From Escherichia coli O157:H7 (GTDB taxonomy: Bacteria; Pseudomonadota; Gammaproteobacteria; Enterobacterales; Enterobacteriaceae): a stretch of 64,000 nt of DNA. The notes below the pieces were generated by a model. It was not told the origin of the DNA and made no database searches. It worked only from the letters and a program-made list of their open reading frames with translations. A program made the position numbers and the translations under genes. Location: assembly GCF_013167455.1 (NCBI RefSeq), contig NZ_CP038328.1; one strand, written 5' to 3'. Shown one piece after another: positions 15,198 through 50,061 of the stretch; the stretch's first letter is position 1; each line of letters opens with the position of its first letter.

Positions 15198-16229
15198 TTA
15201 GTCGCTGGTTGCATGATGACTTGCCTCCAGCGACGGAGTTGACACTGAATGACGACGTACCAGCGTCGGACTAAAGACATTAGTGATTTCCGGGAGAGGG
15301 CGATTATCCGCCAGCGCCAAAGCCAGTTCGGCAGCCTGGGTCGCCATCGTCACGATTGGGTAACGCACGGTGGTCAGGCGCGGACGCACATAGCGTGACA
15401 CCAGCACATCATCAAAGCCAATTAACGAAATCTCACCCGGTACATCAATACCATTATCATTGAGAACGCCCATCGCACCCGCCGCCATTGAATCGTTATA
15501 ACAGGCTACCGCAGTGAAATTTCTTCCTCGTCCCAAAAGCTCGGTCATTGCCTGTTCGCCGCCGCTTTCGTCTGGTTCGCCAAATGTCACCAGCCGGTCA
15601 TTGGCCGCAATACCACTTTCAGCAAGGGCATCGTAATACCCTTGCAGACGATCTTCGGCGTCAGAAATAGAGTGGTTAGAGCACAGATAACCAATGCGGG
15701 TATGACCTTGCTGAATTAAATGACGCGTAGCCAGCCAGGCACCGTAACGATCGTCCAGAGCAATACAACGGTTTTCAAAGCCAGGCAGGATACGGTTGAT
15801 CAGCACCATACCGGGCATTTGTTTCAATAATGAGGCTAAATCGGCATCCGGGATCATTTTGGCATGGACGACCAACGCAGCACAGCGATGGCGGATCAGT
15901 TGCTCAATGGCCTGACGCTCTTTTTGTTCGTTGTGGTAACCATTGCCAATCAATAAGAAATTACCGGTGTGATAAGCCACCTGTTCGACCGCTTTCACCA
16001 TTGCACCGAAAAACGGATCGGAAACATCACCAACGACCAGACCGACCGTTTCAGTGGTCTGCTGCGCCAGCGCACGGGCGTTGGCGTTCGGGTGATAGCT
16101 AAGAGACTCCATTGCACTATGCACAGCCAGCCGGGAAGCTTCGCTGGCTTTGGGTGAATTATTAATGACGCGGGAAACGGTGGCGACTGAAACGCCTGCC
16201 AGTCGGGCTACATCCTTTATGGTCGCCAT
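15198..16229 (-). CDS. galR: galactose repressor (LacI family)
   Basis: 343-aa ORF starting MATIKDVARLAGVSVATVSRVIN (LacI-type HTH). Confidence 0.95.
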   Translation of the reverse strand: MATIKDVARLAGVSVATVSRVINNSPKASEASRLAVHSAMESLSYHPNANARALAQQTTETVGLVVGDVSDPFFGAMVKAVEQVAYHTGNFLLIGNGYHNEQKERQAIEQLIRHRCAALVVHAKMIPDADLASLLKQMPGMVLINRILPGFENRCIALDDRYGAWLATRHLIQQGHTRIGYLCSNHSISDAEDRLQGYYDALAESGIAANDRLVTFGEPDESGGEQAMTELLGRGRNFTAVACYNDSMAAGAMGVLNDNGIDVPGEISLIGFDDVLVSRYVRPRLTTVRYPIVTMATQAAELALALADNRPLPEITNVFSPTLVRRHSVSTPSLEASHHATSD

Positions 16230-16442
16230 GAAAATACCTTAGTGGGTAAACGCTTACATTGTTTCAGTGTTACGGAAAACGCCCGTTGGTTCAAGGGGCG
16301 GCGTGTTTTCATCGTGGGAATGTGAGCCAAACGCAAATAAGTAAGACAAAAAAAGAGATTGCAAACCTTTGGTTACACTTTGCGAAACGCTGTTGCGATT
16401 GACCGCTGGTGGCGTTTGGCTTCAGGTTGCTAAAGTGGTGAT

Positions 16443-16525
16443 CCCAGAGGTATTGATAGGTGAAGTCAACTTCGGGTTGAGCACATGAATTACACCAGCC
16501 TGCGCAGATGCGCAGGTTTTTTTTT
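16443..16525 (+). ncRNA. omrB: OmrB small regulatory RNA (Hfq-dependent, OmpR-regulated)
   Basis: Sequence CCCAGAGGTATTGATAGGTGAAGTCAACTTCGGGTTGAGCACATGAATTACACCAGCCTGCGCAGATGCGCAGG followed by a T-run; recognised as OmrB. Confidence 0.85.
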
Positions 16526-16639
16526 GCCGGTCATCAATCTGTAACAGTAACCGACAATTTACACACCTCGTTGCATTTCCCTTCATTCCTTTGCGTTTTC
16601 TCGCTGGCGAAGAGTCGTCGTGCAGACCACAATCAAGAT

Positions 16640-16727
16640 CCCAGAGGTATTGATTGGTGAGATTATTCGGTACGCTCTTCGTACCCTGTCTCTTGCACCA
16701 ACCTGCGCGGATGCGCAGGTTTTTTTT
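16640..16727 (+). ncRNA. omrA: OmrA small regulatory RNA (paralogue of OmrB)
   Basis: Sequence CCCAGAGGTATTGATTGGTGAGATTATTCGGTACGCTCTTCGTACCCTGTCTCTTGCACCAACCTGCGCGGATGCGCAGG followed by a T-run; shares 5' and 3' ends with OmrB. Confidence 0.85.
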
Positions 16728-16793
16728 CGCACCTAATTTACTGTCGCTCGCGTTCTTTATCTCGTGTAATCTCCCTCCATTCGCTTTTACTGA

Positions 16794-20211
<3,418 letters not shown>

Positions 20212-45073: not shown

Positions 45074-45150
<77 letters not shown>

Positions 45151-45183
45151 TCACCGTACTGCTTTTACTTCATCAAATTTGAT

Positions 45184-45260
<77 letters not shown>

Positions 45261-45293
45261 TCACCGTACTGCTTTACTTCATCAAATTTTAAT

Positions 45294-45370
<77 letters not shown>

Positions 45371-46764: not shown

Positions 46765-46862
46765 GCCGGATGCGGCGTGAACGCCTTATCCGGCCTACAA
46801 ATCATGCAAATCCAAAATATTGCAGGAGTTATGTAGGCCTGATAAGCGTAGCGCATCAGGCA
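46765..46862. repeat. REP / BIME-like extragenic palindromes between mltA and tcdA
   Basis: GCCGGATGCGGCGTGAACGCCTTATCCGGCCTAC (46765-46798) and GTAGGCCTGATAAGCGTAGCGCATCAGGC (46834-46862) are typical REP sequences in opposite orientation. Confidence 0.65.
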
Positions 46863-49855: not shown

Positions 49856-50061
49856 AAAAAAAAGCACCGCAATTAGGCGGTGCTACATTAATCACTATGG
49901 ACAGACAGGGTAAATGTACAGGAAGTGAAAAAAGGTAGCTTTGCTACCATGGTCTGAATCGCAGACCAATTGCAAACACAACAACACAACATCACAACCG
50001 TAAGCCAAAAGTTCACCAGAACACGCATTCCGATAAAACTTTTCGTTCCGGCTCAGGAAGT
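49856..50061 (-). ncRNA. gcvB: GcvB small regulatory RNA (Hfq-dependent)
   Basis: Plus strand 49856-50061 is the reverse complement of the GcvB sequence (5' ACTTCCTGAGCCGGAACGAAAAGTTTTATCGGAATGCGTGTTCTGGTGAACTTTTGGCTTACGGTTGTGATGTTGTGTTGTTGTGTTTGCAATTGG..., terminator hairpin GCACCGCCTAATTGCGGTGC plus T-run); divergent from gcvA. Confidence 0.9.

Follow-up and report, generated by a model that had tools for sequence, protein, structure and literature searches.

The two small RNA genes between galR and aas in Escherichia coli O157:H7 are almost certainly the known pair OmrB and OmrA, Hfq-dependent paralogous sRNAs that form separate transcription units, each with a promoter and an intrinsic terminator of its own. 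We analyzed a 64-kb stretch of DNA (in the following, the window) and compared the whole of it with Rfam 15. The search returned two full-length matches to the OmrA-B family (RF00079; gathering score 40 bits), both of which span model positions 1–87 of 87. An earlier note on this DNA had named the RNAs OmrB and OmrA, in that order, and had proposed an Rfam/Infernal scan as a check. RF00079 matches both copies with exactly the boundaries given in that note, and each copy is 100% identical to its K-12 gene. Copy 1, on the galR side, is omrB and copy 2, on the aas side, is omrA; this assignment follows from the central domain, from the length (88 nt for omrA versus 82 nt for omrB) and from the −10 element (−12C versus −12T). 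All sequence-level defining features of the RF00079 family were tested and found to be present. The locus is the OmrA/OmrB system itself, not a relative of one, and is already known; work on OmrA and OmrB goes back to 2006. What is stated below about control by OmpR, sigma-S and RstA, about the need for Hfq and RNase E and about the list of targets derives from published experiments on identical sequences.

Genomic setting of omrB and omrA

The pair lies in the galR–aas intergenic region on the strand of aas. The earlier note had placed it between these two genes, and the flanking ORFs, their domains and the arrangement in K-12 all agree with this (Table 1). galR is divergent from omrB, while aas has the same direction as the sRNAs and starts 88 bp beyond omrA, giving the order lysA-galR-omrB-omrA-aas-lplT. 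In K-12 MG1655 the order is aas (−), omrA (b4444), omrB (b4445), galR (+), an arrangement that the window shows in reverse complement. Taken whole, the window is collinear with K-12 positions 2,992,588 to 2,928,757, reversed, and most of it is ≈ 98.7% identical. Collinearity breaks only at window 2108–2334 and at 20119/20120. The first of these is a stretch of ≈ 227 bp, near the ygeF/yqeK end, without a megablast match in the compared K-12 interval; at the second, ≈ 70 bp of K-12 (2,972,639–2,972,708, between tas and lplT) are absent.

The 585-bp galR–aas intergenic region (window 16231–16815) is 100% identical to that of many O157:H7 genomes and was found in 5,423 of the 5,426 complete E. coli genomes; the remaining 3 of the 5,426 gave no match at all. 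One match came from a record assigned to a plasmid, and the region was present at two places in a few E. coli genomes. Relative to K-12, the region carries two SNPs (16262, G instead of C; 16300, C instead of T), which are proximal to galR and outside the omr promoters, and one extra T. The latter belongs to the T-run of the omrB terminator (window 16517–16525), which has 9 T versus 8 T in K-12 and thus runs on to 16525 in the window strain. Apart from the extra omrB T and the two SNPs, there is essentially no difference from OmrA (RygA) and OmrB (RygB) of K-12, the RNAs of RF00079: the RNAs (82 and 88 nt), their order and spacing, the flanking genes and the promoter sequences are the same.

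The O157:H7 record NZ_AP018488.1, which was annotated by PGAP and matches window 16231–16815 at 100%, has no feature between galR and aas. Since annotations of the two genes exist only for K-12, this blank is an annotation gap and not a biological difference. It means that the two genes are easily missed in automated annotation, and the practical value of the present result lies there; as a discovery the pair matters little, its sequences being identical to those of the reference genes.

Other RNAs were also recognized in the window (Table 1). The GcvB sRNA lies where synteny with K-12 would place it, by gcvA. Three identical tRNA genes in tandem, 110 bp apart, correspond to the metZ-metW-metV genes for initiator tRNA-Met of K-12. 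A match to the sRNA ES036 (CssrF), located by K-12 collinearity in the tcdA–mltA intergenic region, covers little sequence and may represent hardly more than a terminator.

Table 1. Features of the galR–aas region and other RNA genes, in window coordinates
Feature	Position	Strand	Description and basis
galR	15198–16229	−	343-aa ORF; LacI HTH and periplasmic-binding-like domains; annotated galR in matching records
OmpR/RstA-type box, omrB promoter	16362–16383	+	CAAACCTTTGGTTACACTTTGC; −81 to −60; PWM, conservation, published mutants
Second conserved block, omrB promoter	16390–16400	+	CTGTTGCGATT; −53 to −43; nearly invariant in 34 species (among the matches listed)
omrB extended −10	16428–16436	+	TGcTAAAGT; −15 to −7, −12T; read relative to +1 = 16443
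omrB small RNA	16443–16524	+	82 nt; RF00079, 86.1 bits, E 2.3e-15; = K-12 omrB b4445, 100%
OmrB seed (5′ target-pairing)	16443–16463	+	CCCAGAGGTATTGATAGGTGA; conservation, predicted ompR pairing, published compensatory mutagenesis (PMC2588501)
OmrB intrinsic terminator	16497–16525	+	9-bp stem, 4-nt loop, 9-T run; terminator scan
omrA promoter conserved blocks	16539–16599	+	Phylogenetic footprint, 36 sequences (among the matches listed)
omrA −10	16627–16633	+	cCACAAT; −12C; read relative to +1 = 16640
omrA small RNA	16640–16727	+	88 nt; RF00079, 96.6 bits, E 6.4e-18; = K-12 omrA b4444, 100%
OmrA seed (5′ target-pairing)	16640–16660	+	CCCAGAGGTATTGATTGGTGA; basis as for OmrB; differs only at nt 16
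OmrA central hairpin	16669–16685	+	GGTACG-CTCTT-CGTACC; MFE fold, Rfam consensus structure, covariation
OmrA intrinsic terminator	16700–16727	+	9-bp stem, 4-nt loop, 8-T run; terminator scan, covariation
aas	16815–18974	+	719-aa ORF; Acyltransferase and AMP-binding domains; annotated aas in matching records
Three tandem identical tRNA genes	45077–45370	−	= K-12 metZ-metW-metV
ES036 (CssrF) sRNA match	46798–46840	+	Rfam, 46.5 bits; gathering score 37.6
GcvB sRNA	49856–50061	−	RF00022, full-length, 199 bits

Tandem duplication of the promoter and the RNA

The 15-mer CCCAGAGGTATTGAT occurs at exactly two places in the 64-kb window, 16443 and 16640, both on the + strand. No further site was found even with up to two mismatches, where ≈ 0.1 would be expected by chance in the 64-kb window. 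A repeat finder returned two direct repeats that join the copies, one of 24 nt (16440–16463 and 16637–16660), which is 96% identical with one mismatch and has a start-to-start distance of 197 bp, and one of 38 nt (16490–16527 and 16693–16730), which is 89% identical. When the two copies were aligned with each other, 59 of the 88 columns were identical and the centres differed, with a 6-nt indel. This agrees with the published identity of 68% between OmrA and OmrB (PMC13425233).

The earlier note had described two RNAs about 200 bp apart with near-identical 5′ seeds, matching 3′ terminator hairpins and different centres, and each part of this description holds. The distance is right from start to start, the gap between the RNAs being 115 bp; the seeds fall in the 24-nt block with its single mismatch, the hairpins in the 38-nt block, with T-runs of 9 and 8, and the centres differ and carry the indel. 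The note's further claim, that of a tandem duplication, gained support that reaches into the promoters. When the 100-nt segments preceding the two starts were aligned, they shared the blocks GTT(A/G)CA(C/T)TT, TTGCG(A/T)TT and CGCTGG. As the promoters are homologous, the duplicated unit is ≈ 197 bp long and comprises both promoter and RNA. The pair arose by tandem duplication of this unit; the ends were retained and the centres diverged.

Structure and conservation of the RNAs

In the predicted folds, each RNA has a GGUG...CACC stem around a central hairpin, followed by the terminator, and both folds are better than those of dinucleotide shuffles (z = −2.9 and −2.7). The 5′ end CCCAGAGGUAUUGAU is present without change in both copies at the start of the transcript, and the Rfam consensus structure leaves nt 1–15 unpaired. 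In OmrA the 5′ 15 nt were all unpaired in the predicted fold; in OmrB nt 1–6 were unpaired and nt 7–15 were weakly paired, in the MFE structure only. The terminator hairpins are both G+C-rich and read CCTGCGC(A/G)GATGCGCAGG followed by the T-run. Thus, each RNA ends in CCUGCGC-NGAU-GCGCAGG and a U-tail, located after the enclosing GGUG...CACC stem. The U-tail of the OmrB terminator is presumed to be the Hfq site.

It could be argued that the repeats are terminators (such as bidirectional ones serving galR and aas) or REP-like elements that resemble each other by chance or through the spread of a mobile repeat, and that they are not RNA genes. Both copies do end in strong hairpins that look like intrinsic terminators, and the two hairpins also score as an inverted-repeat pair, as they must, since each of them is palindromic. 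However, transcription of galR leads out of the region and aas begins only beyond it; a + strand terminator at this place would serve neither gene. Moreover, the seed 15-mer is confined to two places in 64 kb, the strongest conservation is found in the 5′ 15 nt and not in the hairpin, the full-length covariance-model scores are 86–97 bits, and the sequences are those of transcripts that were mapped experimentally in K-12. Bare terminators are therefore an extremely improbable explanation, one that is effectively refuted already, and we treat both copies as RNA genes.

To survey other species, one genome per species was scanned for CCCAGAGGTATTGATNGGTG, which yielded at least 120 loci. Among the matches listed, all were from Enterobacterales and most lay between homologues of galR and aas. 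In 136 enterobacterial homologues from the matches listed, nt 1–15 and the GGTG/CACC stem were invariant; being invariant, the stem is uninformative for covariation. The 8-bp core of the terminator was paired in 100% of cells in 135 distinct sequences among the matches listed, and four of its pairs showed compensatory changes (CCTGCGC, CCTACGC, CCCACGC and CCTGCGT, with matching 3′ arms). As a control, registers slid by 1–3 columns were paired in only 19–52% of cells. The central hairpin of OmrA had three pairs with compensatory changes in 28 OmrA-type sequences (matches listed). When all 136 homologues were aligned together with MAFFT, the central hairpins were out of register, because the A-type and B-type centres are not alignable. 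After splitting by type, covariation was not recovered for the OmrB-type hairpin, the alignment of which was out of register; the hairpin itself is visible by eye.

The pattern of conservation also bears on whether the conserved segments might encode small proteins. ORFs do overlap the two copies (16369–16488, +, 39 aa, starting with TTG; 16620–16736, +, 38 aa, starting with GTG). But these starts are not ATG, and by eye no obvious Shine–Dalgarno sequence of the GGAGG type is seen just upstream of them. Furthermore, the central indels are not multiples of three in the matches listed, where homologues range from 72 to 110 nt, and conservation is concentrated at the ends of the RNA with compensatory changes in the stems, which is a constraint of the RNA type. 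We give a coding function hardly any credence and retain the reading as two sRNAs.

Promoters of omrB and omrA

The −10 hexamer of omrB, TAAAGT, is located at 16431–16436, and the TG at −15/−14 upstream of it makes this an extended −10 element. The TG, the TA and the final T (TGnTAnnnT) are kept in 34 species among the matches listed. The −12T has been reported as the sigma-70 determinant (PMC12692685); omrB depends on sigma-70 and is responsive to RstA supplied in multicopy (PMC12692685, PMC13425233).

A position weight matrix (PWM) for OmpR was built from six sites, F1–F3 of ompF and C1–C3 of ompC. Each of these six classical sites was found verbatim and contiguous upstream of K-12 ompF or ompC. 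The top match of the PWM in the intergenic region was CAAACCTTTGGTTACACTTT at 16362–16381 (−81 to −62 of omrB). Its score of 11.0 ranked 25th of ≈ 128,000 positions in the window and was near the leave-one-out scores of F1 and C1. The overlapping sequence AAnCnTTTGnTTACAnTTTGC (16364–16383) is conserved across species, and the box is the most conserved block of the omrB promoter. It contains T-75 (16368) and A-68 (16375), the mutation of which abolished activation by multicopy RstAB and reduced activation by multicopy OmpR from 81-fold to 3.3-fold (PMC13425233). The omrB promoter has been reported to carry two conserved boxes (PMC13425233). The box at 16362–16383 is likely to be the published box B2, and we infer that the second conserved block, CTGTTGCGATT, is possibly box B1.

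In the omrA promoter, CACAAT (16628–16633) was conserved in 36 sequences among the matches listed. Its −12C has been reported as the determinant of sigma-S specificity, and omrA is sigma-S dependent (PMC12692685). The conserved blocks further upstream are CTGTAACAG at 16539–16547, ACACACCTCGTTGCATTT at 16563–16578 (in the footprint, ACACnCCTnGTTGCAnTT) and TCATTCCTTTGCGTTTT at 16583–16599; GCTGG is also conserved, and GTTGCATTT aligns with GTTACACTTT of the omrB promoter. The blocks of both promoters agree with the published picture, in which the conserved boxes of PomrA and PomrB differ (PMC13425233). With OmpR-P in vitro, an omrA template from −114 to +50 was activated and one from −60 to +50 was not (PMC5175337), which places the OmpR-responsive interval between −114 and −60, that is, at 16526–16580.

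The PWM gave background only in the omrA promoter, with a best score of −1.1. The matrix is weak: in the leave-one-out procedure, three genuine sites score below zero, so a missing match in the omrA promoter is not evidence of absence. The search for OmpR boxes that the earlier note had proposed was successful in part, with a box-like site in the omrB promoter (−81 to −62) and none that was clear in the omrA promoter. Both promoters have the sequences of their K-12 counterparts, which are activated by OmpR-P in vitro (PMC5175337). That the RNAs are OmpR-activated and repress mRNAs for outer-membrane proteins, as the note had it, is published for these exact sequences (PMC5175337, PMC2588501). 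A refinement is that omrA and omrB are not regulated identically, omrA depending on sigma-S and omrB on sigma-70, with a response of omrB to multicopy RstA (PMC12692685, PMC13425233). Scanning of 16200–16850 with a generic sigma-70 consensus gave no promoter; promoters that need an activator and have poor −35 elements would not be expected to give a match.

Target pairing and proposed mode of action

On the ompT, cirA and ompR mRNAs, the 5′ end of the RNAs base-pairs close to the translation start; control requires Hfq and RNase E, and compensatory mutations restore regulation (PMC2588501). By this mechanism, control in the window strain would begin with EnvZ–OmpR, OmpR activating both promoters, that of omrB via sigma-70 and that of omrA via sigma-S. 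The single-stranded, invariant 5′ end would then base-pair near the start of the targets (ompT, cirA, fecA, fepA, ompR-envZ, csgD, flhDC and others), and pairing would block translation and lead to RNase E-dependent decay of the target mRNA. Since the two RNAs repress ompR-envZ and are themselves activated by OmpR, they would form a negative feedback loop on their own activator (PMC5175337).

For ompR, RNAduplex predicted pairing of nt 1–9 of both RNAs with CCUUUGGG, which is −19 to −11 of the K-12 ompR leader and adjoins the Shine–Dalgarno sequence. The energy of the duplex was −19.0 kcal/mol for OmrB, and 0.3% of shuffled seeds did at least as well; for OmrA, the energy was −16.9 kcal/mol and the corresponding fraction 4.8%.

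Other sRNAs share parts of this design. MicF and MicC, which are OmpR-activated envelope sRNAs, likewise are Hfq-dependent, pair near the translation start and have an intrinsic terminator, and the tandem siblings PrrF1/PrrF2 of Pseudomonas and Qrr of Vibrio likewise have common seeds and diverge elsewhere. OmrA and OmrB are not known to have a sequence relationship to any of these RNAs. They differ from them in using the extreme 5′ end as the seed and in the feedback on their own activator ompR.

Single-copy and chimeric loci

With an nhmmer profile, two copies were found in 52 and one copy in 68 of the 120 loci listed, some loci being incomplete. In Pantoea and Erwinia, Omr copies are ≈ 2.03–2.10 kb apart and not ≈ 200 bp (L011, L056, L062, L070, L088, L091 and L102). 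In the one of these loci that was inspected, that of Pantoea stewartii (L011, 2747–4879), a gene for a 579-aa FtsI-like penicillin-binding protein (Pfam Transpeptidase and PBP_dimer domains) lies between the copies.

Within E. coli, a query for a PomrB::OmrA junction (omrB promoter and seed fused to the OmrA body) was found in 7 of the 5,426 complete genomes, and the match was uninterrupted (128/128) in all seven. The strains are EC21Z-137, Rb-23, TUM14697, ET358, ET650, 1002W03 and WWCOL-256; in place of the pair they have one chimera, formed by a precise 197-bp deletion between the 5′ repeats. The galR–aas region of EC21Z-137 is without exactly 197 bp, which correspond to window 16440–16636, and has a single match to RF00079. 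For the reciprocal PomrA::OmrB junction, expected of a three-copy allele produced by unequal crossing-over, no single-piece match was present among the best 8 matches, where one of 100% would be expected to rank first. Over 6.1 kb of flanking sequence, the seven strains fall into at least three haplotype groups, with 0–5 SNPs within groups and 32–113 between them; by the same yardstick, the window and K-12 differ by 41 SNPs. The presence of at least three divergent haplotypes suggests independent events rather than one clone. The deletion may have recurred at the 18 identical nucleotides, or the allele may have been transferred.

Loci with one copy raise the question of whether, in the pair as well, one RNA is functional and the other a decaying duplicate. 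The 68 single-copy loci among the 120 listed, some of them incomplete, would fit this, as would the loss of the OmrB body in the seven E. coli genomes and the reported absence of OmrB from Shigella boydii (PMC12692685). In the window, however, both copies are intact and are the same as two K-12 genes for which expression and activity have been shown in either case (PMC2588501, PMC5175337). Both copies have conserved promoter blocks of their own, the two types of central domain are each maintained from genus to genus with the hairpins preserved, and distinct regulation and some copy-specific effects have been published (PMC13425233, PMC12692685). A pseudo-sRNA in the window is therefore very improbable, and we regard OmrB and OmrA as two functional RNAs.

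Chimeras at the species level have been reported before (PMC13425233), as has the loss of OmrB in S. boydii (PMC12692685), so that the chimeras within E. coli are a small extension of what was known. The single-copy loci and PomrB::OmrA chimeras of other Enterobacterales (PMC13425233) belong to the same family and have the galR–aas neighbourhood, the seed and the terminator in common with the window, which, unlike them, keeps the full two-copy arrangement.

A possible route to the chimeras is offered by GATCCCAGAGGTATTGAT, the 18 nt that are identical at both transcription starts. We consider the chances evenly balanced that this stretch recurrently mediates a precise deletion of 197 bp and that selection maintains the two-copy state. 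If it does, the deletion would fuse the omrB promoter to the OmrA body, with loss of OmrB and of the sigma-S-dependent omrA promoter, and selection against frequent collapse would actively keep both copies in place. The rare PomrB::OmrA chimeras offer a natural test, on a small scale, of whether E. coli can do without the second copy and without sigma-S control of omrA.
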